Source: Nitrosopumilus sp. (lineage in GTDB: Archaea; Thermoproteota; Nitrososphaeria; Nitrososphaerales; Nitrosopumilaceae). From it: 64,000 bases of DNA. This document shows positions 13,801 to 62,855 of this stretch, piece after piece. The notes beneath the pieces are model-generated. The model had not been told where the DNA came from. It was given only the letters and a program-made list of their open reading frames with translations, and did no database searches. The stretch spans positions 1,335,849 through 1,399,848 of the forward strand of contig CBDBLX010000002.1 of NCBI GenBank assembly GCA_965207445.1. Reading direction: 5' to 3'. Made by a program: the position numbers and the translations under genes. Position 1 is the stretch's first letter. Each line of letters opens with the position of its first letter.

Positions 13801-16800
13801 CCTTTTTGGAGCCCTGGGTGAATACTGCTGTTGCTGGTTCTGATTTTGAGTTGCTACTTTTGTACTCTACTCCATCATTACTTCCACCAAGCTTGATAGA
13901 AAAGTGCTCACGTATTGTGCCACCTTGTACATCAAATGGTACTGTAATGGTCTCACCAGGCCCTAGTGTGCGGCTCAGCTTGATCATGAATCTTGTCTTG
14001 TCTTTGTTCTCCTCAATGGCAGTCTTTTTTGCATCAAGTGTCACTAACACAGATTTATCATTATACACTTGTACAATATCTGCCTGGGTTGTCGATGGTG
14101 TATCATCATTATCATCATCATCATCAACAATAACAGATACGGTTCGGCTGATCTGTGTTGCTGCGTTGTTTTGTGTATCAGAGCACACGTAATGTATAAT
14201 ATAACTTCCAACATTTGATGTATTCACACTACCTTGCATAATTGGCACAAGAGTGCCATCCACATTATCAGTGCACGTGGCCCCTGCATCGACGTATTGA
14301 CTATTCACAGTTACGACTACAGGCGTACTACCCTTTAGTGCCAATACAGGCGGCATAGTATCCTCAACTAGTACCACTTGATTTACAATACCTGTGTTGT
14401 CTGATGTATCAGTGGCACTCCACTGTACTATATGATTACCAACTGCAAATGATGCCATAACATTATCTGTTGTATTGGTGGTGGTAGTGGTCACAGTTTG
14501 AAGCGAACCTGTGGCATTGTGTGTTATGGTAAATGGACCGCCAGATGTATCATATATGACTGGAAAGCCTAATGCTACACTAGTTGCTGGTCCTGTGGCT
14601 TCAACTTTAACATTTTGTATTAAAAGTGATGGTGGCATAGTATCCTCAACTAGTACCACTTGATTTACAATACCTGTGTTGTCTGATGTATCAGTGGCAC
14701 TCCACTGTACTATATGATTACCAACTGCAAATGACGCCATAACATTATCAGTTGTATTGGTGGTGATCACAGTAGTTTGGAGTGAACCTGTGGCATTGTG
14801 GGTTATTGTAAATGGCCCCCCAGATGTATCATATATGACTGGAAAGCCTAATGCTACACTAGTTGCTGGTCCTGTGGCTTCAACTTTAATATTTGGTATT
14901 AAAAGTGATGGCGGCATTACATCTTGTACTATAATCGTTCTGTCTGCTGATGACTTTTTGCCAATATCATCTGTGCAAGAGTATGATACTGCATATGTGC
15001 CTGGAACAAGTGTGTTGACTGAACTACTCACAACAACAGGAGTTAGGGACTTGCCACTGTGGTCAACACATGTAGCACCTGCATCAGTGTATGGTTGTTC
15101 ACCTTCAGATATGTAAGTTGGGTTGTCCCCCAATATGCTTATTGTTGGTGCTGGTTTACCACCATCTTTGATGTTTACTGTAAATGAAGTGTCCTTGTCT
15201 AACATCACTCCACCCTCAACTCCAGTTGATGTCGGAGGTCCAAGTGATACTGTAATGTTGCGGCCTATTGCATCGTTGCTTTGGCCCGCTGCAAGTACAA
15301 GTGTTGCAGTGCGGGCGTCTTTAGAAAATGTCACATTGAAATTACCACCAACCCCTCCATTTAATGAGGTCAACTCTATTGTACCGCCCAACTTTTCATC
15401 TCTATTGTCTCCGCTGAGTCTGATTGACCAATGTTCAGGTGTTGTGCCCCCATTTACGACAAATGGTGTCGTGACAGTCTCACCTGGTTCTAGTGGACGG
15501 TCAAGATTAATTGTAAAGTTTGTCCCAGCCCCGTTTGTCAGAATTGATGTTTTTTGTGCGTTGATAGACACTGACATGGGCTTGCCGTCATCATCATTTA
15601 CTATATCGACTAGCAAAGTTTTTTGTGATGATAGTGGTGTGTATCCTGAGCCCTCATTTAGCGTTATTGTAACTGTACCGTCTTGTTCATCTGCAATATT
15701 GTTGTCTATAACAGGCAACGTCACTGATGCTGTTCCGCTTGTGGGAACTGACACTGTATGTGATCCCACATAACTAGAGTTTACAAAGCTTCCCACCTGT
15801 GATACTGTATATTTTACATCTAACGGTGACGATGGCGGTGGTTTGACATCTATGAAGAATGTGACATCATCATTCTCAGTCAGACTGATCATACCTGAAA
15901 TACTTGCTACCTTTGGTGGATCCGGTGAGGGGAGTATTGATGTCTTCCACAACACAAAGCCGTGAATATTTCCAACAGATGGGGTGGTGGACGAGTCAAC
16001 CCATCTTAATTCTAAAAGGTCATATAGCGAGTAAAATGGATGTCCTCCATCTTGTCTCTCGACGCGCGGTATCACTGATATGATCAATGATTCTGGATCT
16101 AGGTCACCATCATGTACAGTACTAAAAGATATGGTACCAGTGGTCGTGCCATTTTTTATGGTTAATATACCATCATAGTAGTTTATTTGAGGATCACCAT
16201 GATATATTGGTGTTGATGTGCGCACCGGTACAATGTCATCATATGTGATGGTATCGCCATCAGGGCATAGATTATTTAGATTATGATAGTTACCATGTAT
16301 ATCATTACATGGATGAAGTTGTACAATGAATTGATTGTCTGCTGGCGCGGCAGTATCTAGTGATATGGTGACTGTGATATCTTCACCTGCAGTCGGTGTA
16401 TTGGACGTGATGCTTGCCTGGATGGGGTCTGGGAATTCAATACGTAGTAGTTTGTCATCACCCTCATTTGGAGTACCTCTTCCGTCATTGTTGCTGGTCA
16501 GCAGATACAGTGTTCCGTTTGGATGCTGTATTGGTGTACGTATGCGCCCTAGATCACCATCAAACAACATGGTGTGTCCAGTTCCATCTATCTGCACCGC
16601 CCCGAGGTGTTCTCCGCGCAATGCCCCATACAAGAGCATTCCACCTACCTGTGGTGTTCCGTCTTTGGCAAAGACCAAACCTGATGGCGCCCATGTGTCA
16701 TTGCCGGAGTGTATCAGTGGTGGGATGGTGCCTTCCAAGACGCTGTCTCCGCGCGCGAATGGCCAACCATAGTTCCCACCGGGTATTATACGATTTATCT

Positions 16801-34820: not shown

Positions 34821-37800
34821 TTATCTGCAGATCTTTGGCGGAATCTGAGTGGATGGAGTCAAAGCAATTAGTTTCGTGGTAGGAGAGTCTGTTGTAGATG
34901 ATGTACCAATTACGGTGACTGTAATGTATCTAGAAGATGTATGTCCACCCATATCAGATACAACAAATACAATGTCATGGTTTCCCACATCAGAGGGCTG
35001 CGGGGTCCATACATACACACCACTTTGCGGATCTATTGTGCCCGGACTATGCCTAGAGTATACCAATGTATCTCCGTCGTTATCTGTTGCATTGACATTG
35101 ATTGTAAGTGTGCTGCCCACCGTCACGTTTGTAAACGACGTGTTGGGTGGAGGATACGTGATCACAGGAGCATAATTGTTTATCTCATTTACAGTTATAA
35201 TGACAGGTATAGTAATCACTCCTCCTCCGTTTACGTCACGTACCATGACATCAAACAAATGGGTGCCGGCATCATCCTCACCTGGTGTCCACTCAAATAC
35301 ACCTGTTGTGTAGTTGATTATGGCGCCCCGTGGCACGGATCCACTACTATTATCAAGTGTAAAAGTCAACATGTCACCGTCCGGATCACTTACTGGCACC
35401 GTAAATATTACAGTTTCATGTTCATTTACAGTGTAGTTTATCAGAGTCACATTTGCAATAGGTGGCGCGTTGACCACGGTCAGCGTGGTGGATGAAAAAT
35501 TACTATTATTACCCAATACTGAAATCGTGATCTGCTTTGAATCCTGTCCTCCGTTGTCATCAGATACCATAATAGTCATTGAGGTGGTTGTGTTGGTGTA
35601 GCTGACGTCTGGTGTCCATGTAAACGTATTATTTGACAGGGTGCCAAAGGTTGCATTGACTTTGTAAGTAAGTGTGTTTGCAGGTATATCAGGGTCAGTT
35701 GCAGACATGTTGATGATAAGAGGCGTGCCGACTATACCAGACCTATGTCCGATTTCTGCAAGTACAGGTGGACGGTTTATCTCTGCTACTGTGACTGAAA
35801 ACGTTCGGTTAGCAAATAATGGTGATGGTGAGCCGTTATCTGTGGCAGTTATTGTAATGTGATAAGTGCCGGGACCTTGGCTCTCAGTCGGAGTCCAACT
35901 AAATACACCACTAGATGAGATAGATGCTCCAAGTGATGTGGCATTTGTAGAGTATGTTAGAGTTTGTCCTGCGTCTGTGTCATTTGCTATTGCAGTGATG
36001 ATTAGTGGAATTTCTTCATTTGTCCGTTGATCTGCGATATGTAAAAGTGTAGGTGGTGTGTTGGTTGGTGAATTAAATGTTGATTGTAAAGGTGAATCTT
36101 GTGGTGGTGTTGTCGGTGAATCTTGTGGTGGTGTTGTCGGTGAATCTTGTGGTGTCTGTGTGGTCAATGTCTGCTTTACAACAAGAGGGGCCGGCACCGT
36201 TATGGTGACATCCTCATGATCTGTGCCCCCTGCACCGTCATTGACTGTAAATCGCACTACAATGGTGCCCGCATCTGTAGCAGATGGTGTCCATGTATAC
36301 GTACTACCTGTAATCAAACCTGCTGTATGGTTTGAAGAATATGTAAATGTGTTGGCAGGTATATCAGCATCAGTAGCAGACAACTGGATTGTGATCTGTG
36401 CATCAACAGATGCAGTCTTTGATCCGATTGGTGCGAGATATGGTGCTTCATTTGTCTCAGATACTGTAATTATTAGGCTCTGTGTTCCCACATTGTTTGA
36501 TGCATCTGTGGCAGATATACTCATACTGTACGTGTTGCCACCGTGTTGCTCAGATGGAGTCCAGGATAATATATTACCACCTGATATTGTCGGGAAAGGT
36601 GCCCCTCCTGTTATGTTGTGTGATGCAATAGCAAATGTGACGCCATTCTCATCTGCTACAAGTGTGTGGGTGCCTGCTGTACGTTCAGTAAACGTTGCAA
36701 TGGCAGGAGATGTGATGGTGGGATTTGTACTATCAGATACAGTTATGGTGACATCCTCATGATCTGTGCCCCCTGCACCGTCATTGACTGTAAATCGCAC
36801 TACAATGGTGCCCGCATCTGTAGCAGATGGTGTCCATGTATACGTACTACCTGTAATCAAACCTGCTGTATGGTTTGAAGAATATGTAAATGTGTTGGAG
36901 GGTATATCAGCATCAGTAGCAGACAACTGGATTGTGATCTGTGCATCAACAGATGCAGTCTTTGATCCGATTGGTGCGAGATATGGTGCTTCATTTGTCT
37001 CAGATACTGTAATTATTAGGCTCTGTGTTCCCACATTGTTTGATGCATCTGTGGCAGATATACTCATACTGTACGTGTTGCCACCGTGTTGCTCTGATGG
37101 AGTCCAGGACAATATATTACCACCTGATATTGTCGGGAAAGATGTTCCTGTTACGTTGTGTGATGCAATAGCAAATGTGACGCCATTCTCATCTGCAACA
37201 AGTGTGTGAATGCCTGCTGTACGTTCAGTAAACGTTGCAGTTGCAGAAGATGTGATGGCGGGTGCCGTGTTATCTGATGCTATAGGCGTGGCCAATACAA
37301 CACTAGAGACAGGGCTCGTGCCGGCCGTATTTATGGCACTTGCACGAAATTGATATTGCTGTCCGTTTGCAAGTCCAGTGATGGTAGCAGAGGTGCTAGA
37401 GACGGGATTTCCTGCAAACAGAGTCCACGTAGTAGCGCTACTCATCTTGTACTCTATATTATAGCCAGTAATAGGCGAGCCGCCATTGTTCCCATGTGCA
37501 CTCCACGAGAGTGCTACCTGTCCATCGCCTACCGTAGTGGTCAATCCTGTGGGCGCATCAGGTGTTGTAATCACCGTAATTATGACATTCTTATAGTCAC
37601 TATCTGAGCCATCAGAGACAGTGAACTTGATTGTGATGGTACCCACATCAGCGTGTGTGGGCGTCCATGTATACGTGTTATTTGTAATCGAACCTGCTGT
37701 ATGATTTGTAGAGTATGTTAACGTGTTTATTGGTGCATCAGTATCAGTAGCAGATAGTGTAATGTTAAGAGGGGTGCCGACTGTAGCTGACCTTGCGCTA

Positions 37801-40626
37801 ATTGGCGTGAGATATGGTGCTTCGTTTGTCTCAGATACTGTAATTATTAGACTCTGTGTTCCTACATTGTTTGATGCATCTGTGGCAGATATACTCACAT
37901 TGTACGTGTTGCCACCGTGTTGCTCTGATGGAGTCCAGGATAATATATTACCACCTGATATTGTCGGGAAAGATGTCCCTCCTGTTACGTTGTGTGATAC
38001 AATAGCAAATATGACGCCATTCTCATCTGCTACAAGGGTATGGGTGCCTGCTGTACGTTCAGTAAACGTTGCAGTGGCAGAAGATGTGATGGTGGGATTT
38101 GTACCATCAGATACAGTTATGGTGACATCCTCATGATCTGTGCCCCCTTCGCCGTCATTGACTGTAAATCGCACTACAATGGTGCCCGCATCTGTAGCAG
38201 ATGGTGTCCACGTATACGTACTACCTGCAATCAAACCTGCTGTATGATTGGAGGTATAATTCAGTGTGTTTGCTGGAACATCGGCATCATTAGCGGACAA
38301 TTGGATTGTTGATTTGCCTCTCGTCACTGAGTTGACTATCAGTGGTAGCCGATTTGGCCCCGATTGCATCAAGTACAGGTGGATGATTTGCCTCTGTCAC
38401 TGTGACTGAAAACGTCTGATTAGTAGACATTGGTGGCTGGCCATTATCTGTGGCAGTTATTGTAATGTGATAAGTACCGGGACCTTGACTCTCAGTTGGA
38501 GTCCAACTAAACACACCACTAGGTGAGATAGAGGCTCCAAGTGACGTCGTGGCATTTGTAGAGTATGATAGGGTTTGCCCAGAGTCTGGATCAGATGCTG
38601 CCACAGTAAATCTTACTTCAACTTCTTCGCTTGTTGTTATATCCTGAATTGAATCTAGTACAGGTGCAGTATTGTCTGGGAGCACATCCACTACTGAGAA
38701 TATCTGAACATCATCTCGCTCTGCATCTATTACAAAAAAGTGTGTAGAGTTAGTTGTCATGGATATTGGTTCTTTGAATTGTCCGTCTCCAGTACCACTA
38801 CTGCCAAACTTGCCAACATAATTGCCTGATGTATCAAATATCTGAACATCATCACGCTTACTATCTGTCACATACAGATACCCAAAGGCATAGAGGATGG
38901 AGAGAGGATTTTGAAACTGTCCGTCTCCAGTACCCCTGCTACCAAACTTACCAACATACTTGCCTGATGTATCAAATATCTGAACATCATCACGTAAGGA
39001 ATCCACCACAAACAAGTGCGTATAACTTGCCGCAATATCTCTCAGGCTAGTGAACTGCCCGTCATCCTGGCCATTTCTACCCACATTTTTTATATAATCA
39101 CCAGTGGCATTAAACACCTGGATCATGTCTTTGTTATGCGAAGCTGCAAATATGTGTGTAGGTGTGACTGCAATATCATGTGGTCTAAAATTATTTCCAG
39201 TCGTATTGAATACTGACACAAAACCCGTAGAGTTAAATATTGAAATACGGTTGTTGTTCGTCTCAGCTATGAACATGTGTGTACCATTATACGCGACTCC
39301 TACAGGACCGCTGAATTCTCCATGGACACTACTAGTACTATATCCGCCGATCTTGTGTGAGAACGTACCGTTGTCATGAAACACCTGGACATAGTTATTG
39401 CTATTTTGTGTTACAAATAGGTGGGTAGAGTTGGATGCAATGCGTAAGGGATCGGTAAACTCTTCGTCTTCTGAGACACCGCTACCAAATTTTCCCACAT
39501 AGTCCGGGGAGAGGTCAATATCGGCTCCGACTCGTAAGAATGCCTGAATGTCAGATCTACTATCATCAAGCACAAAAAAGTGTGTAGAGTTAGATGCAAT
39601 TGAGATTGGACTCTGAAACTGTCCGTCTCCAGTACCACTGCTACCAAACTTGCCAACATACTTGCCTGATATATCAAATATCTGAACATCATCACGATCA
39701 GTATCTGTCACATACAGATATCCCGAGGCATAAATGATGGAGCGAGGACTCTGAAACTGTCCGTCTCCGGTACCACTACTACCAAACTTGCCAACATACT
39801 TGCCTGATGTATCAAATATCTGAACATCATCACGATAAGAATCCACCACAAACAAGTGCGTATAACTTGCCGCAATATCTCGTATATTACTAAATTTGCC
39901 ATTGTTATTGCCCGTCCCCCCTATTGTCTTGATGTAATTACCAGAAAGGTCATATATCTGAATCTTTTCTGAATTTATATTATACACAAATATGTGCGCA
40001 AGTGAAACTGTAATACCATATGGCCTAAAATTTTGAGCTGTGTTAAATGTGACTGCATGCTCTCCTAAAGAGTCAAATATTTGGATGCGGTAGTTAAATG
40101 TGTCTGCCACAAACAAGTGTGTATCGTTGTATGCAATACCTTCAGGAGTGCTAAACTGGCCGGGGCCGGTACCAGTCCACATATTACCGATCTTGCCTGC
40201 AAGCGTACCGTTGGTATGAAACACAGATATAGAGTTGTCATTATCTTGTATTACAAATATGTGAGTAGAGTTAGATGTGATATCTGTTGGATTGACATGT
40301 ATTGAATTTGTTAACTGGCCTTCACCATTACCATTATTGCCGAACTTGTACTCAAACTCAGGCATGCTCTGCATGGGCAAAAAGTGAAATGCGGGAACGG
40401 CAAAGGCGTGTTGGATGTAATAATTAAAATCCTCACTATCGGCTCCATTCACTCCCACATGCACGTCTCCGATGCTTACTAAAACAATACCAAGTGTCAC
40501 AATTACAAAAAATGATATGATGCGCCCTGATAATCTACTATACCTTGTGTGTTCGCTCACACATACACACCTTTGCACATTCTGGCGATACTGGGCGCAA
40601 CACACGCCATCTAATTTAAACACCAT
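34821..40626 (-). pseudogene. Giant surface protein (two NHL propellers + cadherin-like Ig repeats + FN3), split into ORFs 38290-40626 and 34821-38372 by a 19-nt insertion
   Basis: NHL repeats GKFGSSGTGDGQFQ.P; FN3 (PDAPTGL...GDGQV.LSW..GGSPITGYNIEY..LANG..YQFR); removing 38310-38328 restores one ~1928-aa frame. Confidence 0.82.
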
Positions 40627-47580: not shown

Positions 47581-49152
47581 CTAACATCCAGACCTCTGTG
47601 CCCACTCATCATCACCAAAATTAGATGCACGACACTCTTTTGTGTTGAGTTGTACTAGTCCTTTGGATAGTAATAACTCATTTAGTGGTATAGGAGGTCC
47701 TGCTTGCACAGGGGTGCCATAGCCGATACACCATGCCAAAACAGCCTTGTCTGTGTCAGTGTTTTGGATGCGTCTACCATTATCAATATCATATATGATG
47801 GATGTGCCCTGGGGGCATGATTTTCTAGTGTATGATGTGGCTTGCTCATACAAACGGTCACCTGGTTGCGGTCCATTTACAAGTGTCAGATGTAATATGA
47901 CGTTGTTTTCTATCTGTATGGTATCAGAGTGTATTACTCGGATAATTGTGCTGGTGGTAGCAGTATCATAATTGATGGGTCGTGGGATGGGTTTGAGTGT
48001 TGTTGTTGTTGTTGTGGTTGGTGGTGGTGATGATGATGGTGGTGATGAGGTGATGTTGGTGGTGATACTAGTAGGTGCAGGTGGTAAAGTGGGTGGCAAA
48101 GGTGGTTGTTGTTGTGACGGTGACGGTGACGGTGTATCATCTGACAATGTAATTTGAGGATCTGCTTTTGGTGACACATCTGATAGTGCTACCGGTTCTA
48201 TCATTATAGTAGTTGGGATTTCATCTAATACACCACCTTTTTTACTATTATTAGGCAACAATGGATCAGGTACACTTCCAGGAAACATTTTCTCTATCTG
48301 TAATATCTCTTGTTGTCTGTTCTCTATAGTACTATCTAATCCGGGAGGTCCATACACACACTCTAAACTAGTAGCTCTTATCCACCATCCATCTAGCCAT
48401 CCATAGGGTTTCATACACTCTAATCCACGTTTTGTATAATTTGCAAAACCATCGGCATACCCATCCCCATCATGGTCCTCCCACCCATCACCCAAATCAT
48501 TACCATTCTCATCATACTTGCACGGCTTTAATGAAAATCCCATTGCTACTGCCTCATTCTCATCAAAGATACGTAGCCAATCCGGTGAATTACCATACAA
48601 CTGATTAGAGCGCGGTATGCCTGTTGCGAATCCAAACATCATTCTAGCCTCCTCACCTTTTGAATTGACATTAATAGAACAGGGAGGGGCTTTTGCATAA
48701 TAATGATAGATGGATTTTTTGGTGCCATTTGATACGTGCAAAAAGTACTCTACTTTTCCATTTACCACATATTCTTCTGGTAAAGGTTCTGGTGGTTTTA
48801 TTATGGTGCCATCGATCGTTACAATGGCATCATTATAATTGTCAATATTACTATCACCCACATCAATCTCACTAGATGTTATTGGTTTGATTTCAAACTC
48901 AACATATGTATTCTCAGGTATGGGTGGTGGTAGTAAATTTTCCTGTATGTTATTATCACCTATCAACCCTATCATAATCATATTATGCACACCATCAACA
49001 CCATCCAACATAATATCAAAGCCAGTTTGCATCATTCCCAACACACCATATGACATATCCCCATGTATCATACCCACAAATAGTGCAAACACAACCATAC
49101 CTACAATCGCACTCATTGCAGATATCACAATTCTCTTACTTGTAGTACTCAA
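47581..49152 (-). CDS. Membrane-anchored protein with Pro/Thr linker and degenerate C-terminal thermonuclease (SNase) domain
   Basis: IIRVIHSDTIQI, L.LVNGPQ, LNELLLSKGL, C..S.F.D.WA..GC pattern. Confidence 0.65.
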   Translation of the reverse strand: MSTTSKRIVISAMSAIVGMVVFALFVGMIHGDMSYGVLGMMQTGFDIMLDGVDGVHNMIMIGLIGDNNIQENLLPPPIPENTYVEFEIKPITSSEIDVGDSNIDNYNDAIVTIDGTIIKPPEPLPEEYVVNGKVEYFLHVSNGTKKSIYHYYAKAPPCSINVNSKGEEARMMFGFATGIPRSNQLYGNSPDWLRIFDENEAVAMGFSLKPCKYDENGNDLGDGWEDHDGDGYADGFANYTKRGLECMKPYGWLDGWWIRATSLECVYGPPGLDSTIENRQQEILQIEKMFPGSVPDPLLPNNSKKGGVLDEIPTTIMIEPVALSDVSPKADPQITLSDDTPSPSPSQQQPPLPPTLPPAPTSITTNITSSPPSSSPPPTTTTTTTLKPIPRPINYDTATTSTIIRVIHSDTIQIENNVILHLTLVNGPQPGDRLYEQATSYTRKSCPQGTSIIYDIDNGRRIQNTDTDKAVLAWCIGYGTPVQAGPPIPLNELLLSKGLVQLNTKECRASNFGDDEWAQRSGC

Positions 49153-49225: not shown

Positions 49226-50173
49226 TTAGCGTCGGCGTAATATGAATTGCAAGCGTCGGCGTAATAATATGATCTGTTTTTTATCGTCTTTTTGATTTAT
49301 AGTTGTAATAATCAAAGTTCTACTGCCCTCTCGTTCTGGTCTGATGTGTAGTACAATAACACCTTCTGTAGATGTACGTAGCGTATCAAACAGTTCGTCA
49401 TCTAAATAGCACTGTACTAGTATATTGGGCATTATAGTACCATCTCCTTTATGTAGTGTCATGCGAATTGATTTTAATTCATCCAAGTCGGCACATACTA
49501 TTTCTTGTGTATGTTCTATGATTGACTGTACGTTATCACTACTACTGCTGCTGCTACTGATGCCATTTTTATCATCATTTATAGAAGAAGAAGAAAACAA
49601 CACATGCAGTAAATGTCGTGGAAATCCCAAAATTTGAGATTTTTCTTTTTCTTCTTTTTTGTAATGTTTCTTGTGCAATTTCATTGGTTTTTTATCTATT
49701 TTTTTGCTTAGCATTTGTCGTATCATTAATCGCATTATAGATATCATAACACTATCTGCTGTACCATACGCAGGCTTTACAATTGCTAGACAAAATCCAA
49801 TCAAAAGCGGAATAAATGATATGCAAACTACAAGCCAATCCAAAGTTATGTCCATATTCTTTGGCACCATTGTACTATACATCATACCAGTGATAATAGC
49901 GCCTACAACTATAACTGCAATATTGCGCATAGACATGAATCCAAAGGGTGTTGTAAGGGCAGGCTCATCAATGCTAGTATAGTCTCTGAATATCAAAACT
50001 TCTGTAGGTTGCACATATAACAAAAATGGATTTACATAAAAAGCAATATAAAGTGAAAATGGTCTCAGAGATTCAGAGCCTATTAAATACATCATAGGAG
50101 GAGATAATGTAGAGTGTCCACCTCCACACCCCTCAGATTTTTTACCGATCATCATCTTTTCTACTATTTTCAC
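49226..50173 (-). CDS. PrgI/VirB3-like two-TM conjugation protein with C-terminal beta domain
   Basis: IDEP...PFG.MS.R + two TM helices + KP.YG; directly downstream of VirB6-like gene; start uncertain. Confidence 0.5.
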   Translation of the reverse strand: MKIVEKMMIGKKSEGCGGGHSTLSPPMMYLIGSESLRPFSLYIAFYVNPFLLYVQPTEVLIFRDYTSIDEPALTTPFGFMSMRNIAVIVVGAIITGMMYSTMVPKNMDITLDWLVVCISFIPLLIGFCLAIVKPAYGTADSVMISIMRLMIRQMLSKKIDKKPMKLHKKHYKKEEKEKSQILGFPRHLLHVLFSSSSINDDKNGISSSSSSSDNVQSIIEHTQEIVCADLDELKSIRMTLHKGDGTIMPNILVQCYLDDELFDTLRTSTEGVIVLHIRPEREGSRTLIITTINQKDDKKQIILLRRRLQFILRRR

Positions 50174-50305: not shown

Positions 50306-51985
50306 TCAATGTCTTTCATGATTTATGTTATTATCGGCCTTGTTATTTCCATGGTCATCATCAGCACCTGTTTTACTCTTTTTATTTAGCAAACCACTCT
50401 GTTGTATATCACTGAGTTGTTGCTGCCCACTATGTATTCCACCTGTCACTTCAGCAGGCATTGCCCCTATCATACTATTCCCCATACCTAAACCCATCCC
50501 CTTTAGCATAGCCAAAGGACCGTGGCCTTGCGTATTAGTAGCTCCGGCTAGTGCACCTGCCCCCATGCCCATTCCCATCTGCATTGACATCATACTAGTA
50601 CTAGTAATGGCACTACGTAATGCACCTGATACTTCACTAGATGCTCTACCCACTATTGGTACTAGTGTAGCAGGCCAAGCAACAGCTAACGATATTATGG
50701 CTATAACTGTCATCCATTCCTCTATGGATGGTATGGGGGTATTTGATACATATGTCCATCCTATGAACAGTGTTAATGCAGTAAGAAATGGCGCCAATGA
50801 TGCGCCTAATAACCCATCTACATACTGTTTAGCATGTGATTTGACATATGGTATTAGCATTAACAAAATCCATACTGGTAAAGATATTAGCATAAAGTCA
50901 ATAAAGAATATTCTTATGACATTAATAGCAAATATGCCTATACTAATTGTAAGGGCAGGCGTCATCATGAAAAATGGCAATAGTATTTCACCTAGCAGAG
51001 TTTGACCAAAGTCAGCAGGATTAGCCAACGCTGTTGCCCATGATACTGGATTCAATAGACCTGCAAAGTCAAATATACATCCACTTGCAGCACCTAGCTT
51101 ACACCATAACCCATCTATGGTTGCCTGAGGTTGTTCTGTTATTGGGTCTAAGACCAATACTGCAAAATCAGTCATCAAAATTGCAAAGATATCCCATATT
51201 TCGGGCATTATCCATATTATTGCAATACCAAATACCGAATGCTTGAACATTGAGATGGCAGTACCTGGACGTACCAATTGTAATCCTTTTTCCCAAAAGT
51301 GTAGTGCAATTGTGAATATTATAACTAGTACAAGTATACTAGTGACTGGATATGCAAAATATCTATACATTGTATATTTACTGCTCTCTTGCTCATACCA
51401 TCCTATATCCTGTAATTGTTGATTTATCTCATTTTGCCTAATTTTGATCACTTTTACTCTATCATTATTACTACTACTACTACTGCTACTGCTAATATGA
51501 TCTTGCTCAGATGGCGCAAATACACTGCCGCGCTTTGTAGGCTCTCCTGCAATTTTGATCAATTCTGCATCTAGTATTTTACGCTCATCGATTAGTGGTG
51601 CAGCTTGTCTATTAACCTCATCGGATATTATTGATATACGTTTTCCATCTTTATCATAGACGTGTATTGTTGGTATGGTTGTAATGGCATCTAGTAATGA
51701 ATGTTGTATCATGCCTGTAAATAGAGCCATTATACTCACAAATACTACAAAGCCCATTAATGTCAGACCTAACATGATCGGACCTGTTAAGATAAATCCA
51801 GGTCTGCCTTTTTGTGTGATTTTGCGCTTTTTATGGTACTGGCATTTTTTTGTTATTGTAATTGTAGGGGTGGTTGTAGTGCGTGGAGATATAGTGATGT
51901 GTGGAACTATGGTATGTGGAGTTGTTTTAATTACTCTAGACATTTTTTCTATAATTGTTGTTGCTATATGAGGCATTGAACACAC
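50306..51985 (-). CDS. VirB6/TrbL-like polytopic conjugation membrane protein
   Basis: 6-7 TM helices, IRIF.I...LISLP....L..IP pattern, Gly/Ala/Met-rich tail. Confidence 0.65.
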   Translation of the reverse strand: MCSMPHIATTIIEKMSRVIKTTPHTIVPHITISPRTTTTPTITITKKCQYHKKRKITQKGRPGFILTGPIMLGLTLMGFVVFVSIMALFTGMIQHSLLDAITTIPTIHVYDKDGKRISIISDEVNRQAAPLIDERKILDAELIKIAGEPTKRGSVFAPSEQDHISSSSSSSSNNDRVKVIKIRQNEINQQLQDIGWYEQESSKYTMYRYFAYPVTSILVLVIIFTIALHFWEKGLQLVRPGTAISMFKHSVFGIAIIWIMPEIWDIFAILMTDFAVLVLDPITEQPQATIDGLWCKLGAASGCIFDFAGLLNPVSWATALANPADFGQTLLGEILLPFFMMTPALTISIGIFAINVIRIFFIDFMLISLPVWILLMLIPYVKSHAKQYVDGLLGASLAPFLTALTLFIGWTYVSNTPIPSIEEWMTVIAIISLAVAWPATLVPIVGRASSEVSGALRSAITSTSMMSMQMGMGMGAGALAGATNTQGHGPLAMLKGMGLGMGNSMIGAMPAEVTGGIHSGQQQLSDIQQSGLLNKKSKTGADDDHGNNKADNNINHERH

Positions 51986-54391: not shown

Positions 54392-54549
54392 CTCTGGGTT
54401 TGAGGAGGTTGAACGGTTATGGGGGCATGGTTTGTTCTAATATACATAAGGTTACATATAGATTATTTATCAAATGCATAATCAGTCATACGTTTCCAAA
54501 AATACACAGTAGATGATCCCATGACCCCACCTATCAATGACACCAATAC

Positions 54550-54792
54550 TCACGGATCAAGGGAAAATTGCCAATCATATTTGTCAGAACTAAACCCACT
54601 TAGAAATATGATAAGGTATAGAATATAATGGTGAGTGATAACTGTATTGAACAACCACCTGCGTGTTTGTCGTTTTTCCCTTCCATCATCTGCGCGGCTA
54701 GAAGACAGATCCTTGTCTTCTTTTTTAGATCGTGAATCGGGTTTTGGCTCAATTTTAGTTGGTATACCAAGATCACTAGGAGAGCCAGTCAT
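54550..54792 (-). CDS. Small partner of Panacea protein (charged N-terminus, one hydrophobic helix; possibly truncated)
   Basis: ATGA overlap with Panacea stop. Confidence 0.45.
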   Translation of the reverse strand: MTGSPSDLGIPTKIEPKPDSRSKKEDKDLSSSRADDGREKRQTRRWLFNTVITHHYILYLIIFLSGFSSDKYDWQFSLDP

Positions 54793-55271
54793 ACCTGTAA
54801 TTGGGATTTATAATAATCACGTGTCATACTATTTGGGATTTCAATACCTAATCTACCATCCTTGTAACATTGGTGCCACGGTGTACCAGGTTCGTGTGTC
54901 ATAGTGGAGAGTCCCCGACCTGAAAAGTGGCCATATTTATTCATTACCACATCAATAATCTTCTTATGTTGATCTGAAATTCTACTAGTCAAAAATTTTA
55001 TACGATCCTTTATTTCGGAAGAGTTTAATGATGTTTTACAGTATGGTAGTTCCATTACATCATTCCCTCCATATTCTCTTAGTGCATAATATATGGTAGG
55101 TATTACAGGGCCATATTTCCATGCTTCAACCCTGTCTAGAAAAAGTGCTTCATTTTCCAACGCCAGTGTAAAACCATGTGATATGTACGATAGCTTGTTG
55201 GATTGCATCGGAGTCAGGGGCACTGATGATGTTGCAAGTATATAATCCGCTACAAGCAAAGCAGAAGCCAT
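54789..55271 (-). CDS. Panacea-domain (DUF4065/SocA/GepA) antitoxin
   Basis: VADYIL, LTPMQ.NKL.Y..HG, EAWKYGPV, L..MTH..GTPW, I.N.....YY motifs. Confidence 0.9.
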   Translation of the reverse strand: MASALLVADYILATSSVPLTPMQSNKLSYISHGFTLALENEALFLDRVEAWKYGPVIPTIYYALREYGGNDVMELPYCKTSLNSSEIKDRIKFLTSRISDQHKKIIDVVMNKYGHFSGRGLSTMTHEPGTPWHQCYKDGRLGIEIPNSMTRDYYKSQLQV

Positions 55272-55507
55272 TCTAGTAACATTTGTAATAATACACTATT
55301 ATAATATTATCAATAATTGATATTCTTGGATACCCCTCTTGCATTAATTGCGGGTAAAAGCTACTGACTTTATATTCGTCCCTTCCGCACAGCACACGGC
55401 ACCCAGTCCAGTCCACTCCTCATCTGACGTGTGCTAGACACCGCCGGTGTGTGGTAGAGATGGGTACGCTCATGACGACTGCTGTGGGCAGTCGGCAGGT
55501 CGTCTTA

Positions 55508-55589
55508 GTAACCGTTCAACCCCCGGTACCTACGCCAGACGTTAGGCGGTGAATTTGTGCCCAAATTTGGGAAGAAGTTGAACGGTTAC
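55508..55589. mobile_element. MITE-A, 82 bp; extra right end at 55634-55646
   Basis: Perfect 13-bp TIR GTAACCGTTCAAC; colinear with 25080 copy. Confidence 0.85.
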
Positions 55590-55657
55590 GATCAGAGGAA
55601 AAGGAGGGGGAGGAAAGAGTGGTGGTGGTGAAAGTTGAACGGTTACCACCCAATAGA

Positions 55658-58600
55658 TCATTTCTCAGGACTTAGATGAAATATTCTAACTCTTTTCTTT
55701 TCCTTTGATGTTAGTTGCTCATACACATCTTTGATTTTAGGACTAGTAGACCATACATCACACCTTGCAAATCCTAACTCTGACCATTTTAGCATATTTA
55801 ATTTAACGTGCTCTGGATGCCTTGCAACTTCTGCTGTTGATTCTATCTCTACTGAGATAGGAGTTTCAGTGTCATAATTGTATGCTATCAAATCAGTTCT
55901 CAGTTGATCTTTTTTTATGGTCTGCGCTGCTGTACACAAAAAGTATCGCTTGGCAAGATAGTATTGTATTGCATATGAGGCTACTAGTGGTATGTCTTGT
56001 GCGGTTCCAATACTACTAATATCAAATTCAAAGTACATCTGCTTGATATTGTGCGGTAGACAATAAAATGTCTGTTTACCATTAACATAACTGTCCTTAC
56101 TAGTTGCCTCTAATAGATCATCTTTTACCATCTGCTTTAAAATCCCCCCGAGATCATCGTCTTTCATAGTTCCTCTACCCATCTTTCCATTATCCAATAC
56201 ACGATTAATTTCACGCCTGCCCATCGTCATATCTTTTGCACTGTATAAAATACACATTATGTGCCATTGTGTTTTGGTAGGTGGCTCATATGATATGTAA
56301 TTGAGCCACATGTTGGCGCGTCTGTCATATTCTGCTACCTTTGACTCGCCTGCCTTACCATAACCATACTTGGTCTTTTGTTTTACAACAAATTCATGCA
56401 TAAACTGTTTTGATTGTATGTTGGGATTGGTATAAACTGGCCAAAATTGAATTGGTATTGGTTGTTGTATATCTTGTTCATTTGCTATTAGTCTTGCAGT
56501 CCAATGGTGAAACTCTTGTGTTGCTAGTTGTGCTTTGACATCCTTTGATCTTTTAGGCTCCCATATCTCTGCAAATTTACTGGCATCTGTGCCTGATACT
56601 CTTCCTACAAATTGTGTGCCTGCATTTCCTGTTATGATCTCAAATAATTCAGTGCTGATTTGCGTAGGTGTTTGATGCGCTAGCAATAAACCCAAACCAT
56701 AAGAGCGTGCCTGCGTTAGTATTGCAGGTATAACTGGTAGTTTTGCTACATCCTGAAACTCATCTAGTGCTAGCAATACCTGAGTACGGCCTGCTTCATT
56801 TTGTATGTGGTTGGCCCGTTCTTGTATGGCAAACCACAACTTTATAACTATGGTTTGTTTTAAAAATGAAACAATATTTTGTGGTATGTTTAATGGTGAC
56901 AAGCGTATAACAGTATATGCACCTTTTAATATCATATCATCAAACTTTATGGTAGATTCAGGAACACACAACATGTCTCTGAGACCTTTATTGGTTGCAA
57001 ACTTTCCCAATCTATTCAAGACTGGCTCATAGGCAATCTTGCCCATTGATGCCACACTCTCAATTTCTTGTTTTAGAGCAGAATCATTTGGTTTGCCTAA
57101 TTCTTTGTACATTTTAATTAACATCGATTTGCCATCTTTTTGCATCTTGATTATAATATCACGTATATCCAACAATGTTGGTTTATCATTATTTAAGTAA
57201 ACATATTGTAGTAATGTCTCTAAGATGCGGTGCAACCTCACAAATGCCTCTTGGTCAGTGTACCAATATTTTATCATCTGCATAATATAGCCCACATATT
57301 GAGTGACTAGGTTTTGCCTACGCTCTGCTAGTATTTCCGGTGTTATGTATTTTTTTGTTTGAGAGGGAGGAGTTACAGTATTGTTATTGGTAATAATAGT
57401 AGTAGTAGAGTTGTTATCATGCACTGCACCTGCATCATCAATAACATCTCCAACCTTACCATATGGTGGTAACTCCAATACATTAATGGAGAATTTAGTT
57501 TCAATAGGATCTAAAAATGTGACTCTATTTTTTTCAAATGATTCTGTCTCACACTGTCTTATGAGATCATACGAGTCATTGCCTTTGGGATCTATGAAGA
57601 TAAATGCATTCTCAAATGTTTGATGAATGTTTGCCATCTCCAAATGTTTGGCTATACATCGGATTAGTGTAGTCTTTCCTGATTTGGTACCGCCTACCAC
57701 ATACATGTGTGTAGGTATATCAAATTGTGATAGTACGACTGCTTGTTCTTCAGAAGCTTGTACTATATTACCATACCAATCTTTAATATGCGATTCAATA
57801 TTTGGCCATTGTTTTTCTATTGATGTATGAGGCGATATTATATTGCCAAATGATCTTGTTTTTAGTTGATCTATATACCCTAGACAAAATCCGTGCTTTT
57901 TGATCTGTTGAATAGGTATCTCTGGCTTGCGCGATATGTTTAGATTGGGAGTTGATTTGGCATCAGGTAATCTAAGAAACAAACCTAGCTCATTTTGTGT
58001 CAATAGTAAAAATGGAGGTGATCTTCTTTTATGATATGTGGTACCTAGTAGCCCCCAGTATTTTTTATTGACATAACGACTGACAACATAAGATAGTAAA
58101 GTTGGGTCAGGCATCAACCTGTACTCAAACATCGATAACAAACGATACTTTTTCTTTAGATTGGGATTATTCTTTTTTATTGTTGTTGTTGTTTTGCTTT
58201 GTCGATTTTCTTGTTTTGAGTTTTCATTTTGTGTTGTTGTATCTTTGTTTTTATCATATTTTGCAACATATCTTGCAACATACCTTGCTGCAATATCATC
58301 ATGTGTGATATTATCTTTATCATTGTAAGGCTCTACGTTAATGCCACTGTAATAGTGATGTGAAATTTTTTTATCAATAGATTGTTTTTTTGTTTTCTTT
58401 AGATTTGTGTTATGATTCCCATCTGTTGGCACTTTATTTCGAGTATGTATATTATCATATAGTGTAATATTACGTTTTAGGAATTTTTTTTTGCTGTTAT
58501 TGTAATAGTTGGTTGTAAGATGCTCATAACCTTGACTACCGCCTCCGGGCATATTGATTGATTGTAATAGAGATGGATCTATTTGCAAAGACTCTTTGTT

Positions 58601-59494
58601 TTTGTCTTGAAGTATCATGCCGCGTATTGATAACATGGTGTTCTCTGATTGTGTTTTTTGTTTAATATCATACAGTAGCATATTATAATATGTGGTAAAA
58701 TCTTTATTCTTTTCTGGATGAGGTCTGCCCTTTGAGATGTCACCGTACAGGTAATCTCGAAGAGTGAGATAATTCTCAGAATTGGTAAATTCTCCATATT
58801 TGTATCGCATAATTTCAATCAGGTTATTCAAGATATTAGAAAAATTGTACTTTTGAAATACTAGTTGAATCCATGCATATGATGATAGTTGTATAGTGTT
58901 GGCAATTGTTGTGATGTTATCGTATGTATTGCGAGTATCAAATATGGATGCAAAATGACCGTGCCTATATCCAATATCAAAAATATCAAAACGATTGTTT
59001 TGATCAAATAGTACTTTTGGGAACCATTTTGGTGTTGGTGCTATTGCTGTGATGTGATTTTTAATATGGTGATTTTTTGCCGTATCATTACCATCACCAT
59101 TACCACCACCACCTCTACTCCTACTGTCATCCCCACCCTCATCATTTTGAGTCTCATCACCAAAAGGCAATAAGATTGCCCCCGGATACATTATCGCAAA
59201 GTCCTTTTTATACTTGGCAATATCACTTTTGTCTGTTATGAGCATTACATCTAGATGATTTGATTGTACACCATCCCACCACAACTCAATTGAGCGCGAA
59301 TGTGTTGCAGATGATACGCCACTAGTATTATCAAAGACTCTGCTCATATCTGCATCTAATGGCACTGATACTTGTAAGGCACGTAAATTTTGATGATGAT
59401 CTTTTGATATGTCAGTAGAACCGAACATTTTGTGTGTATTATCTAGCATTCCTGGCTGTTTCTTCTCATTTGATAATTTCCAATAACCGCACAT
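55658..59494 (-). CDS. VirD4/TraG/TrwB-like (HerA/FtsK superfamily) coupling ATPase with C-terminal wHTH and PD-(D/E)XK-like domain
   Basis: THMYVVGGTKSGKTT, FIFIDPKG, LALDEFQ, ARSYGLGLLLAHQ..Q; C-terminal RTDLIAY...ISVEIES. Confidence 0.82.
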   Translation of the reverse strand: MCGYWKLSNEKKQPGMLDNTHKMFGSTDISKDHHQNLRALQVSVPLDADMSRVFDNTSGVSSATHSRSIELWWDGVQSNHLDVMLITDKSDIAKYKKDFAIMYPGAILLPFGDETQNDEGGDDSRSRGGGGNGDGNDTAKNHHIKNHITAIAPTPKWFPKVLFDQNNRFDIFDIGYRHGHFASIFDTRNTYDNITTIANTIQLSSYAWIQLVFQKYNFSNILNNLIEIMRYKYGEFTNSENYLTLRDYLYGDISKGRPHPEKNKDFTTYYNMLLYDIKQKTQSENTMLSIRGMILQDKNKESLQIDPSLLQSINMPGGGSQGYEHLTTNYYNNSKKKFLKRNITLYDNIHTRNKVPTDGNHNTNLKKTKKQSIDKKISHHYYSGINVEPYNDKDNITHDDIAARYVARYVAKYDKNKDTTTQNENSKQENRQSKTTTTIKKNNPNLKKKYRLLSMFEYRLMPDPTLLSYVVSRYVNKKYWGLLGTTYHKRRSPPFLLLTQNELGLFLRLPDAKSTPNLNISRKPEIPIQQIKKHGFCLGYIDQLKTRSFGNIISPHTSIEKQWPNIESHIKDWYGNIVQASEEQAVVLSQFDIPTHMYVVGGTKSGKTTLIRCIAKHLEMANIHQTFENAFIFIDPKGNDSYDLIRQCETESFEKNRVTFLDPIETKFSINVLELPPYGKVGDVIDDAGAVHDNNSTTTIITNNNTVTPPSQTKKYITPEILAERRQNLVTQYVGYIMQMIKYWYTDQEAFVRLHRILETLLQYVYLNNDKPTLLDIRDIIIKMQKDGKSMLIKMYKELGKPNDSALKQEIESVASMGKIAYEPVLNRLGKFATNKGLRDMLCVPESTIKFDDMILKGAYTVIRLSPLNIPQNIVSFLKQTIVIKLWFAIQERANHIQNEAGRTQVLLALDEFQDVAKLPVIPAILTQARSYGLGLLLAHQTPTQISTELFEIITGNAGTQFVGRVSGTDASKFAEIWEPKRSKDVKAQLATQEFHHWTARLIANEQDIQQPIPIQFWPVYTNPNIQSKQFMHEFVVKQKTKYGYGKAGESKVAEYDRRANMWLNYISYEPPTKTQWHIMCILYSAKDMTMGRREINRVLDNGKMGRGTMKDDDLGGILKQMVKDDLLEATSKDSYVNGKQTFYCLPHNIKQMYFEFDISSIGTAQDIPLVASYAIQYYLAKRYFLCTAAQTIKKDQLRTDLIAYNYDTETPISVEIESTAEVARHPEHVKLNMLKWSELGFARCDVWSTSPKIKDVYEQLTSKEKKRVRIFHLSPEK

Positions 59495-59676: not shown

Positions 59677-59708
59677 GAGATAATTCCTTTTTAAAAAAGA
59701 ATTATCTC
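59677..59708. promoter_or_regulatory. 32-bp near-perfect palindrome (operator or oriT candidate)
   Basis: GAGATAATTCCTTTTTAAAAAAGAATTATCTC, one mismatched pair, in the divergent spacer. Confidence 0.45.
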
Positions 59709-60578: not shown

Positions 60579-62855
60579 ATGTCGATAGATTTAGATCTTA
60601 AATCCGAGTACAGTCACGTCGGTTTTTTTAACATTCGATCAACTAACTTTGAAAAGATTGCAATAAATGAGTATGGTAAAAAATTAACAGGTCGCGTGAC
60701 AAAAGAACACGAGCCTACAATAAAACAACATGTGTTGGAATCTGAGCGATGGTGTATTGAACCCACAGCACAATCACGACAAAACATGTTGTTACTTGAT
60801 TGGGATGGTAAAACCACATCCCACATACCAAACAAATTACTATTGTTAATGTCTTGGTTCAGATCAGATGGCACCAGATACAGCTATCATGGAATTGTTA
60901 AAGTTGTAGATGCCAACTATGACTGGCTGAAAAAATTTGTAAATCAGTACTCGTGTAATGGTCTTGAGATGTGGATTGAGAACAAACGAATGTGCCTGCG
61001 AGGTATGTATACGGGTGCCACAAAACAAACAACAAAATGGAAACTCAAAGATGACAACTCAAAGCCAATCACATATATGACTAAAAAGGAGTTGGGCAAT
61101 CTAGGCATATTTATTAAAAATCCTACAAATCAAGAAACAGAAACAAAACGATTACTTGCACTACGTACAGTTGTACAAGGGGACAGGTATGCATACAATA
61201 GAGCGTATATAGGAAATACAATACGACAAGCTAATGGTAAAATTCCAAAAGAGGAATTATACGATAAATTAATTTTACAACTGCAAACAGTCATGCCGAC
61301 TTGGAGTATATTTGCACAAGGAGGGATACGACACGCAGAAGTAATGCGTCTTATCGATGATTTGTTAAACACATATGATGCAAATAAAAACCACAACAAC
61401 CACAACAACAACCACAACCACAACAACACAAAAAATGATCGATTAAATCTGTATGAGTGTGCAAGTATAATACAACACGAAAAGCCACTAGTCACAACTG
61501 CACTAAATAATATCATACATGGTTATGAAGGAAATAGGTGGTTAGAGTATACAAACAAACTAAAATCAAGAATTCGCTCTCGATTCACAACAAATGAGAT
61601 CACAACATACGAACAATACGAGATAATACGAATCATTGAGGATAACACACGCAAACACATGGAAGGTGAACCAGACACAGACGATATATTTAATAAATAT
61701 GTACATATTTTTACATTTACAAACGGGCAATATGATGCATTAACAGATGAATTTACAACGGAATGTGACTCTGAGATATTAAACACAATACGCTTTGATT
61801 TTCCATACCGGCGTGATGCTCAAGCATCCAAGTTTCTTTTAGCCATTGATGAGTGGATGAAAAGTGAAAAGGGCGATACACAGCAAGAGCGAGATGCACG
61901 AAAAATACGCAAGATACAGTGGCTCAAAGAATCATACGCACTAGCTGCAATCCCTAAACGAATACGGCAAAAAGGGCACATTTGGTACGGGGCAGGCTCA
62001 AATGCAAAAGGGTCTGCTGCACGTATACTGCAAAAATTTCTAGGTCATATGTATTGTACAGCATTAACACTCAAAGATATGAATGGTAAGGATTCGCATT
62101 GGGCAGAAGATTTGATTGACAAACTTCTTGTAGTAGGAGGGGATGGTACGGGATGGAAGGTAAGTGATACTACACATTACAAGCAACTAGTTGGCAATGA
62201 TCGCATATCTGTAAACCCAAAGAACAAGAAACGATTCACATATGACCCCATATGTCATGTTATACTATTACATAATGAGTTGCCTGATCCACATGATAGA
62301 TCAATTGGTTTTGTTCGCAAGGTGCAACTCGTAGAGTTTGAGCAACGATTCAAAGAGGATGCTAGTGTTGAGGATGCAATACTAAATGATGCAGTAGAGA
62401 TGGCAGGCATATTCAATTGGATAGCACCTCAAATAAAGCACTTTTTGAGAGGTGGGCCACTCGTAGATCCCAGTACTCCAGATGAAACTCGACGAGAGTG
62501 GCAGATGAGTGGCTCTGATATTGATGACTTTGTAAAAAATAGACTTTTAATTATTAAGGGTGCAAAAGAGACTACAGATAACATCTATGAGACATATATT
62601 GCCGAATACGAATATGCACTAAATGATAATGCTAGAACACAAAAGAATGTTGTAATCAGGCAGATAAAGGCAGCCCTAAATGAGAATACAAATAACATTA
62701 AAGTAGAGATCAAAGACCATACATCAAACAAGATCAAGGTACGGTATTTGATGAATGTGCAGATCAATGATGATAATGATGATAACGGTAATGATGATGG
62801 TAATGATGATAACAAGACAAACACACAACCTGACGGCTTAAAAGATCATATCTAA
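60579..62855 (+). CDS. Plasmid/phage-type primase (AEP-like) fused to D5/SF3 helicase
   Basis: LLDWDG and SYHG primase motifs; F.NG..D D5_N motif; YGAGSNAKGS, K.L.G.D.I....K.K, HNELP..D.S.GF.R. Confidence 0.8.
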   Translation: MSIDLDLKSEYSHVGFFNIRSTNFEKIAINEYGKKLTGRVTKEHEPTIKQHVLESERWCIEPTAQSRQNMLLLDWDGKTTSHIPNKLLLLMSWFRSDGTRYSYHGIVKVVDANYDWLKKFVNQYSCNGLEMWIENKRMCLRGMYTGATKQTTKWKLKDDNSKPITYMTKKELGNLGIFIKNPTNQETETKRLLALRTVVQGDRYAYNRAYIGNTIRQANGKIPKEELYDKLILQLQTVMPTWSIFAQGGIRHAEVMRLIDDLLNTYDANKNHNNHNNNHNHNNTKNDRLNLYECASIIQHEKPLVTTALNNIIHGYEGNRWLEYTNKLKSRIRSRFTTNEITTYEQYEIIRIIEDNTRKHMEGEPDTDDIFNKYVHIFTFTNGQYDALTDEFTTECDSEILNTIRFDFPYRRDAQASKFLLAIDEWMKSEKGDTQQERDARKIRKIQWLKESYALAAIPKRIRQKGHIWYGAGSNAKGSAARILQKFLGHMYCTALTLKDMNGKDSHWAEDLIDKLLVVGGDGTGWKVSDTTHYKQLVGNDRISVNPKNKKRFTYDPICHVILLHNELPDPHDRSIGFVRKVQLVEFEQRFKEDASVEDAILNDAVEMAGIFNWIAPQIKHFLRGGPLVDPSTPDETRREWQMSGSDIDDFVKNRLLIIKGAKETTDNIYETYIAEYEYALNDNARTQKNVVIRQIKAALNENTNNIKVEIKDHTSNKIKVRYLMNVQINDDNDDNGNDDGNDDNKTNTQPDGLKDHI

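Follow-up and report, generated by a model that had tools for sequence, protein, structure and literature searches.

A VirD4-type ATPase carrying a winged helix and a PD-(D/E)XK-fold domain is a candidate relaxase equivalent in a thaumarchaeal conjugative element

How archaeal conjugative elements start DNA transfer is a question left standing by five sources (these and all others are cited for the parts of them that were covered), in which an archaeal relaxase is stated to be unknown or absent (PMC6563490, 2019; PMC9905601, 2023; PMC12282955, 2025; PMC11868833, 2025; PMC12857230, 2025). PMC12102498 and bioRxiv 10.64898/2026.09.28.752058 contribute nothing further to this question. The question is raised anew by a 64,000-nucleotide stretch of Nitrosopumilus sp. 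DNA (hereafter the window; assembly GCA_965207445.1, contig CBDBLX010000002.1, forward-strand positions 1,335,849 to 1,399,848), in which an open reading frame (ORF) at 55658..59494 on the minus strand lies within a ~60-kb element region of this genome. An initial annotation, made from the letters of the window, had read its product as a VirD4-like coupling ATPase extended by a wHTH (winged helix-turn-helix) segment and a nuclease-like segment, so that one polypeptide might replace a relaxase. We found that the 1278-amino-acid product is a VirD4-type ATPase ending in a winged helix and a PD-(D/E)XK-fold domain, and we put at roughly 60% the probability that these last two domains are a relaxase equivalent joined to the coupling motor of a conjugative element of thaumarchaea. 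No description of a nuclease domain on an archaeal VirD4 surfaced in a literature search; supplementary files lay outside that search, so an earlier mention is possible.

Domain order, fold and conserved residues of the fusion protein

The ORF is intact, and the motifs quoted in the initial annotation sit in its last 222 amino acids, which we call the tail. The N-terminal domain (57740..59494, minus strand), to which no function is assigned, spans ~400 amino acids in homologs and is longer here through low-complexity inserts; it gave no match in the Pfam scan, and in five loci (L042, L043, L045, G288, G173) it is encoded as an upstream gene of its own (391-415 amino acids). It is followed by the VirD4/TraG-type coupling ATPase (56345..57739, minus strand; residues ~590-970), a TrwB/TraG-D-type domain with intact Walker A (GGTKSGKT, 601-608) and Walker B (ALDEFQ, 909-914) motifs, which exceeded the Pfam cut-offs for TraG-D_C (PF12696), TrwB_AAD_bind (PF10412) and T4SS-DNA_transf (PF02534); FtsK_SpoIIIE (PF01580) reached 17.4 bits, under its cut-off of 24. 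In a quick tree, whose deep nodes are weakly supported and from which we claim neither origin nor direction, the ATPase clustered with the VirD4 proteins of pNOB8, pTC and pT33-3 (SH-like approximate likelihood ratio test 80, weak) and away from VirB4. The 1278 residues contain no transmembrane-level hydrophobic window (maximum Kyte-Doolittle value over 19 residues, 1.28), and an N-terminal membrane anchor of the VirD4 type was lacking in all five proteins checked (maximum 19-residue hydropathy 1.3-1.6); soluble coupling proteins exist.

An AlphaFold model of the tail, built on an alignment of 17 homologs, resolved two domains with a predicted local distance difference test score (pLDDT) of 91. 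The first, a wHTH and candidate DNA-recognition domain (56024..56287, minus strand; residues ~1070-1157), matched the MarR_2, HTH_27 and Penicillinase_R profiles in 7, 5 and 4 of the 17 aligned sequences, respectively, and its model superposed on MarR-type wHTH regulators with Z 11.4 and a root-mean-square deviation (rmsd) of 1.5 Å over 74 amino acids. A PDB sequence search with the tail returned wHTH matches only, and no nuclease family in Pfam or NCBIfam matched the tail by itself. Because whole-tail fold searches filled up with wHTH matches, the second domain (55661..56005, minus strand), our candidate nuclease for the origin of transfer (oriT), was modelled alone. This 126-amino-acid model (pLDDT 92.8) has the topology alpha-beta-beta-beta-alpha-beta, with D1201 opening strand 2 and E1216/E1218 closing strand 3. 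Its top Foldseek matches were NucS (E 9.8e-4), EndoMS, EcoT38I, BstEII, SfsA, MspJI and PaqCI; VIA-align gave PaqCI (Z 9.2, rmsd 3.4 Å, 112 amino acids), AF1548 (Z 8.6) and NucS (Z 7.7), and further fold neighbours were Hjc, Can2-type proteins and the inactive RNA-polymerase Rpb5-like fold. No solved MOB_C relaxase structure appeared among these match lists. Each single score is moderate, and it is because the lists agree on one fold that we assign the modelled domain the PD-(D/E)XK, restriction-type core; the acidic residues lie on strands 2 and 3 as an ExE variant, and the canonical lysine of (D/E)xK is absent. The architecture proposed in the initial annotation was thus borne out by Pfam, by models with pLDDT of 91-93 and by restriction-type fold matches.

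Searching with residues 580-1278 gave 102 proteins at E ≤ 1e-10. The tail was present in 93 of the 104 sequences examined (full-length in 89), and the 11 without it all stop at or before its expected start. One of these 11, the close relative P0029 (936 amino acids), shares 97% identity with this protein as far as residue 907, is unrelated beyond, and is a broken or mis-assembled copy. Across the 89 full tails (mean identity 49%), Q1191, D1201, E1216, S1219, E1222, H1226, N1233, K1236 and W1248 were invariant and E1218 was kept in 88. The D and ExE residues, whose conservation across archaeal VirD4 homologs the initial annotation had named as a check on its reading, were each kept in 98 of 100 representatives below 60% identity, followed by Q (96), K and W (93 each), N (92), H (90), S (89) and E1222 (88). 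Only 11 of the 222 tail columns reach 88% in this set, and Q, D, both ExE glutamates, S, E1222, H, N and K are among them, a conservation that, judged from the alignments, exceeds chance.

The tail on other archaeal VirD4-like proteins

By sequence, the tail is no local oddity: elements of Nitrosopumilaceae have it on their VirD4-like proteins, and so do Thermococcus pT33-3 and the Sulfolobus plasmids pNOB8 and pTC. Within the family of the window (Nitrosopumilaceae, to which the named relatives carrying the tail in this search belong), 33 of 301 genomes gave a strong match (E < 1e-20); 42 further genomes among the 75 that matched were left uncounted, their matches being weak (best E 2e-6 or weaker) and nearly all confined to the wHTH region. 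The gene was patchy among genomes, with up to four copies in one, a pattern as for a mobile gene, and in a sample of the phylum 19 of 401 genomes matched at E ≤ 1e-5. Against 1.84 billion representative proteins the tail profile gave 158 matches at E ≤ 0.001; among the 150 matches listed, 75 carried the ATPase, 71 had fewer than 100 residues upstream (fragments or stand-alone forms) and 4 had other upstream sequence, one of them clustering with a 982-amino-acid protein.

The profile also reached the cluster of the VirD-like protein of pTC from S. tengchongensis (AAT46519, E 2.2e-7) and the Thermococcus nautili plasmid protein WP_285519946 (E 1.6e-7), whose 103,230-bp record is the strain 33-3 plasmid NZ_OX281346, identified as pT33-3 (PMC13492992), and a look-up of 10 distant matches also named proteins of Metallosphaera, Stygiolobus and Marsarchaeota. 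Both pT33-3 and pNOB8 are conjugative by experiment, and mutation of the pT33-3 VirD4 gene abolished transfer (PMC12857230); from its Pfam content, the mutated gene would be that of WP_285519946. With this protein as query, tblastn matched 52 plasmid records; among the 40 listed, all 16 from Sulfolobales (pNOB8 included) aligned through residues 906-911, that is, across the nuclease, and the other 23 ended their alignment at or before residue 673. The nuclease motif was seen directly in pNOB8 ORF1025 (WP_011229432; RPDL...IAVEIESPNEIEVHPEQVKRN), pTC and pT33-3 (KPDL...IAIEIES, residues ~840-870). The initial annotation had allowed that similar fusions may exist in other archaeal elements, and these three plasmids confirm it; the same tail on pT33-3 and pNOB8, for which no relaxase is known, likewise supports its idea that the fusion could stand in for one.

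That haloarchaeal VirD4 proteins lack the tail was first suggested by tblastn coverage and a profile miss, and was overturned when a diverged tail was found. Nine of nine haloarchaeal VirD4s examined (eight drawn from 29 matching plasmid records and one from the pT33-3 tblastn) have the D and ExE residues within the motif H...Q...(P/A)D...ExE-x-S/T, and a profile-profile comparison with this tail scored 68.7% over 162 columns (E 4.6e-5), the residues Q, D, ExE and S falling in register, which indicates that haloarchaeal plasmid VirD4s probably bear a diverged form. Every archaeal VirD4 examined closely carried the tail.

Tail and ATPase formed a single ORF in 52 of 60 loci and were split by a frameshift in one. 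The remaining seven had no ATPase in the fetched DNA, two of them lying at contig ends and four being broken or partial; the last, a genuine exception (L080/L123), encodes a wHTH-nuclease with a membrane anchor; its neighbours are genes for an integrase-like protein, an OLD-like ATPase and a KAP NTPase, and no VirD4 occurs within 20 kb. In L123 (L123:7468-15377, on G030:C1) this protein has 496 amino acids and joins a membrane-anchored coiled coil to the wHTH-nuclease, and one gene of this small element, without a Pfam match, presumably encodes a Toprim-like protein. This may be a mobilisable element with a relaxase only, or else a repurposed defence nuclease. P0233, P0238 and P0250 are comparable membrane or coiled-coil forms of the tail. 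Several compact relatives of the fusion locus consist of an integrase-like gene, an actin/MreB-like gene and the fusion, with no VirB4 within the 20-40 kb examined. The actin/MreB-like gene (~280 amino acids, Pfam-supported) lies directly upstream of the fusion in 11 of 23 loci (among them L034:3674-10615, L057:12230-19282, L035, L037, L039-L041 and L043-L045), often with an integrase-like gene, and its product is possibly a ParM-type partition protein. Many small elements bear defence-type cargo.

The surrounding element and its candidate sites

The initial annotation saw no separate relaxase, and a profile search agreed, with 0 matches in this genome (96% complete) for PF13814, PF03432, PF08751, PF07514, PF03389, PF01076 and PF02486. 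Six of these seven profiles passed their cut-off in at least one control genome and PF13814 in none; moreover, PF19044 missed this genome's VirB4, which was found by tblastn, so profile negatives, the relaxase ones included, are no proof of absence. No known relaxase was found among 16 larger unannotated or ATPase ORFs of pNOB8, a plasmid (L048) typed by MOB-suite in PLSDB as 'conjugative; relaxase MOB_Unknown'.

The element encodes a primase-helicase, a prepilin peptidase, TadC (T2SSF), a PilT/FlaI-type ATPase (T2SSE) and VirB4, the last at C2:1435214-1437394, ~40 kb from the fusion gene and at 24% to pNOB8 ORF630 (tblastn). A VirB2-like pilin gave a weak match (E 0.003), and a TFIIB gene next to ParB is assigned by reading, without Pfam support. 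The proposal that one polypeptide recognises, cuts and pumps DNA therefore stands as regards the domains, which lie in one chain, and falls as regards a one-protein system, because VirB4, a pilin-like protein and genes for pilus assembly are found on the element as well. The primase-helicase gene, of the plasmid-type primase/SF3 helicase kind (60579..62855, plus strand; DUF5906 E 7e-11; TIGR01613 E 2.5e-27, under its cut-off), is divergent from the fusion gene. On the minus strand are a multi-pass membrane protein (50306..51985), probably VirB6-like, at 39% over 426 amino acids to a neighbour of the homolog in L033, and a two-helix membrane protein (49226..50173), which we take to resemble PrgI/VirB3; neither gave a significant Pfam or NCBIfam match. 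Cargo is represented by a SocA/Panacea antitoxin (54789..55271, minus strand; PF13274 E 2e-19), overlapped by an 80-amino-acid ORF (54550-54792) that could be a toxin partner or a remnant. The element region further holds several transposases and two fused restriction-modification genes with Eco57I/MmeI-type methylase domains (C2:1409159-1411972 and 1424307-1427186). A membrane-anchored protein of 523 amino acids (47581-49152, no Pfam match) looks by eye like a degenerate thermonuclease (SNase) domain in its C-terminal part.

As a cleavage substrate the initial annotation had put forward 55380-55507, a choice that did not hold up. This interval belongs to a GC-rich dispersed repeat (55337-55507) with two other genome copies (C2:804841 and C2:1314600, 86-88% identity), which extend further and resemble each other, and it adjoins an 82-bp miniature inverted-repeat transposable element (MITE; 55508-55590) with TAACCGTTCAAC ends, which has 135 near-full-length genome copies as well as lone ends at 54404-54419 and 55634-55646. 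The whole segment (55337..55590) had a folding z of -1.3 and no Rfam match and is not element-specific, hence a poor oriT candidate. Upstream of the fusion gene, a 32-bp near-perfect palindrome (59677..59708) has an identical copy at C2:1434191-1434222 in the same element and occurs nowhere else in the genome within 7 substitutions; it may be an element-specific operator or oriT component. A scan for perfect palindromes returned nothing, missing even this known one-mismatch palindrome, and is hence uninformative. Beyond the element, the window appears to hold host genes within 1236-5331, where a gene resembling polyhydroxyalkanoate synthase (2739-3803) precedes a PhaE-like one. Large surface proteins that look repetitive, with repeats of cadherin/Ig-like and NHL-like type (10811-17758, 20881-23568, 34821-40626), are encoded amid many insertion-sequence remnants, which suggests a host-associated lifestyle.

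A proposed route for DNA transfer, its rivals and known systems

The domain order, the nuclease fold, the conserved catalytic-type residues, the conjugation-gene context and the same fusion on Sulfolobales and Thermococcus conjugative plasmids are the basis of a proposal whose inferred steps are DNA binding, cutting, the choice of strand and closure of the DNA in the recipient. The wHTH would bind a site on the element, its transfer origin, and the D...ExE centre with a divalent metal would hydrolyse the DNA at that place, most likely as a nick in one strand and with no tyrosine linked to the DNA, as has been reported for TraX, a relaxase of the MOB_C class (Replic_Relax, PF13814). The cut end, already at the mouth of the VirD4 ring, would be fed into the VirB4/VirB6/pilin channel, and a helicase, primase and ligase of the host or the element would unwind the DNA and close it in the recipient. 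Single-strand transfer is proposed because the lumens of archaeal Ced and Ted pili admit single-stranded and not double-stranded DNA (PMC9905601). Small elements with only an integrase, an actin-like gene and the fusion would then be mobilisable elements with a one-gene mobilisation module.

Several points weigh against a relaxase-equivalent tail. Cleavage is a prediction, and what is hardest to accommodate is the piloting, recircularising and resealing of DNA, of which a motor-bound nuclease is not obviously capable. The same question arises for relaxases of the MOB_C and MOB_H classes, neither of which has shown a covalent intermediate (PMC12857230). No conserved tyrosine follows ExE in the 100 diverse homologs, and no oriT or shared cis-sequence was found. 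No integrase was found near the element (the sole PF00589 match lies ~0.9 Mb away), and comparisons of tRNA repeats and flanks gave no att sites; the element may be immobile. The tail is not strictly motor-bound, since it also follows membrane helices or coiled coils in proteins that lack an ATPase (3 of the 150 listed matches, together with L080/L123). As to Replic_Relax, no PF13814 match occurred among the best five matches of each of 47 tail-bearing proteins, only one of six bacterial VirD4 loci opened had an adjoining Replic_Relax gene, and the Atlas link of the tail to a Replic_Relax cluster (0.87) is a lead only. Aligned by hhalign to a TraX alignment, the wHTH scored 94% and the nuclease part 4%, a weak test because the TraX alignment is shallow; TraX itself against another PF13814 protein (a single sequence) scored 5.5%.

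The rival that survives best, though we consider it unlikely, is that the fusion, like a terminase or TraB, cuts and pumps double-stranded DNA. The wHTH would read a site, the nucleases of the ring would cut both strands, and linear double-stranded DNA would be pumped. Motor, wHTH and nuclease indeed share one chain, a ring would provide several active sites, the wHTH of FtsK or TraB reads a DNA site, and many of the fold neighbours cleave both strands. Double-strand transfer has also been proposed for archaeal elements (PMC6563490). The motor, however, is VirD4-type, with FtsK under its cut-off, and the element retains VirB4 and, by a weak match, a VirB2-like pilin, while the related Ced and Ted pili are too narrow for double-stranded DNA, as measured there and not on plasmid pili (PMC9905601).

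Somewhat less probable still is that the nuclease is accessory and non-specific, breaking down the strand that is not transferred, or trimming or fragmenting DNA at the channel, with transfer started by another factor. This would accommodate the membrane-anchored forms without ATPase, the matches to NucS, SfsA and Can2-type proteins, which are not sequence-specific enzymes, and the absence of an oriT from our searches; it sits poorly with a wHTH preceding the nuclease in all full-length copies and with the small integrase-bearing elements, which keep the fusion, show no VirB4 over the 20-40 kb examined and fit a specificity function. A role outside transfer, such as defence or the resolution of intermediates that arise when the element replicates or recombines, with an incidental fusion, is improbable: Hjc and NucS are among the fold matches and many small elements have defence-type cargo, but the fusion to a conjugation ATPase is kept in Nitrososphaerota, Sulfolobales, Thermococcales and Marsarchaeota, and in diverged form in Halobacteria, beside unrelated replication genes. 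A catalytically dead fold that merely binds DNA or protein, as the missing (D/E)xK lysine and the inactive Rpb5-like matches might suggest, is highly improbable, because nothing in the tail is better conserved than its three acidic residues and ExE is found also in TraX and, in place of (D/E)xK, in BamHI.

Returning to the tail as a relaxase equivalent, a wider claim, whose chances we regard as evenly balanced, is that conjugative and mobilisable elements in Nitrososphaerota, Sulfolobales, Thermococcales and Halobacteria have one DNA-processing enzyme in common, a wHTH and PD-(D/E)XK nuclease on VirD4. It would be a relaxase class of a new kind, in which recognition, cutting and pumping of DNA fall to a single ring-forming polypeptide with no covalent pilot protein, and would explain why the archaeal relaxase has been invisible. 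What is novel is the fusion of a restriction-fold, relaxase-like nuclease to a coupling protein, both parts being known as separate proteins. A specific candidate with named residues, on plasmids that conjugate in the laboratory, means that a point mutant can address the stated question of the archaeal relaxase. If correct, the proposal would supply a marker by which the mobile elements of archaea could be sorted into conjugative and mobilisable ones, and would help to map archaeal oriT sites for use in gene-delivery tools. It would also add a second solution for starting DNA transfer, with the nuclease tethered to the motor.

Among known systems, Streptomyces TraB, the precedent named in the initial annotation, carries a wHTH behind its ATPase ring and likewise has no separate relaxase. 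It is FtsK-like, moves double-stranded DNA, acts without other type IV secretion subunits and has no nuclease described in the covered parts of PMC12857230, whereas this motor is VirD4-type and accompanied by VirB4; a bacterial MOB_C relaxase with its coupling protein is therefore the nearer comparison. The thaumarchaeal integrative and conjugative elements of Krupovic et al. (2019, PMC6563490) share with this ~60-kb element VirD4, VirB4, a PilT/FlaI-type ATPase, TadC, a prepilin peptidase, pilins, a primase-helicase and, on our own reading, TFIIB with ParB. In its covered parts that paper reports no relaxase candidate and does not mention a nuclease tail on VirD4; no integrase was found near this copy. 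Sulfolobus pNOB8 (ORF1025) and pTC and Thermococcus pT33-3 encode a homologous ATPase-wHTH-nuclease protein with the same motif and no known relaxase; these proteins differ in their divergent N-terminal domains and in a low-complexity stretch of 140-450 amino acids after the nuclease, and their records annotate the ATPase alone.

The nearest analogue is the MOB_C relaxase with its coupling protein (TraX-TraW of pAD1/pTEF1, MobC-MobB of CloDF13). A wHTH lies at the N terminus of TraX, which also has a PD-(D/E)XK site and for which no covalent intermediate has been observed (PMC12857230), and the pTEF1 replication-relaxation protein, which we take to be TraX, has D152...E170-I-E172, spaced like D1201...E1216-I-E1218 here. 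After ExE the two part: this tail continues S-x-x-E-x3-H-x-E-[QH]-V-x2-N-x2-K and TraX LTMKTRRRY, so that the K-x3-R-Y signature of MOB_C is replaced at the same spacing by E-x3-H-P, with no conserved tyrosine. We accordingly do not claim membership of the tail in MOB_C, given this different signature and the absence of PF13814 and TraX-nuclease profile matches, on a test that is weak. Elements with MobC (PF13814) encode VirD4 beside it (PMC5357655), and an Embleya plasmid has the gene order VirB4-VirD4-Replic_Relax. Streptococcal integrative and mobilisable elements hold an integrase, VirD4 and MobC only (PMC5357655), and the compact archaeal elements resemble them, though their VirB4 could lie farther off. 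Collectively, MOB_C relaxases and this tail are alike in a wHTH followed by a PD-(D/E)XK domain, in D...ExE spacing, in a VirD4 partner and in residing on both conjugative and small mobilisable elements, and they differ in that the MOB_C relaxase is a separate gene product, whereas this nuclease is fused to the C terminus of the ATPase.

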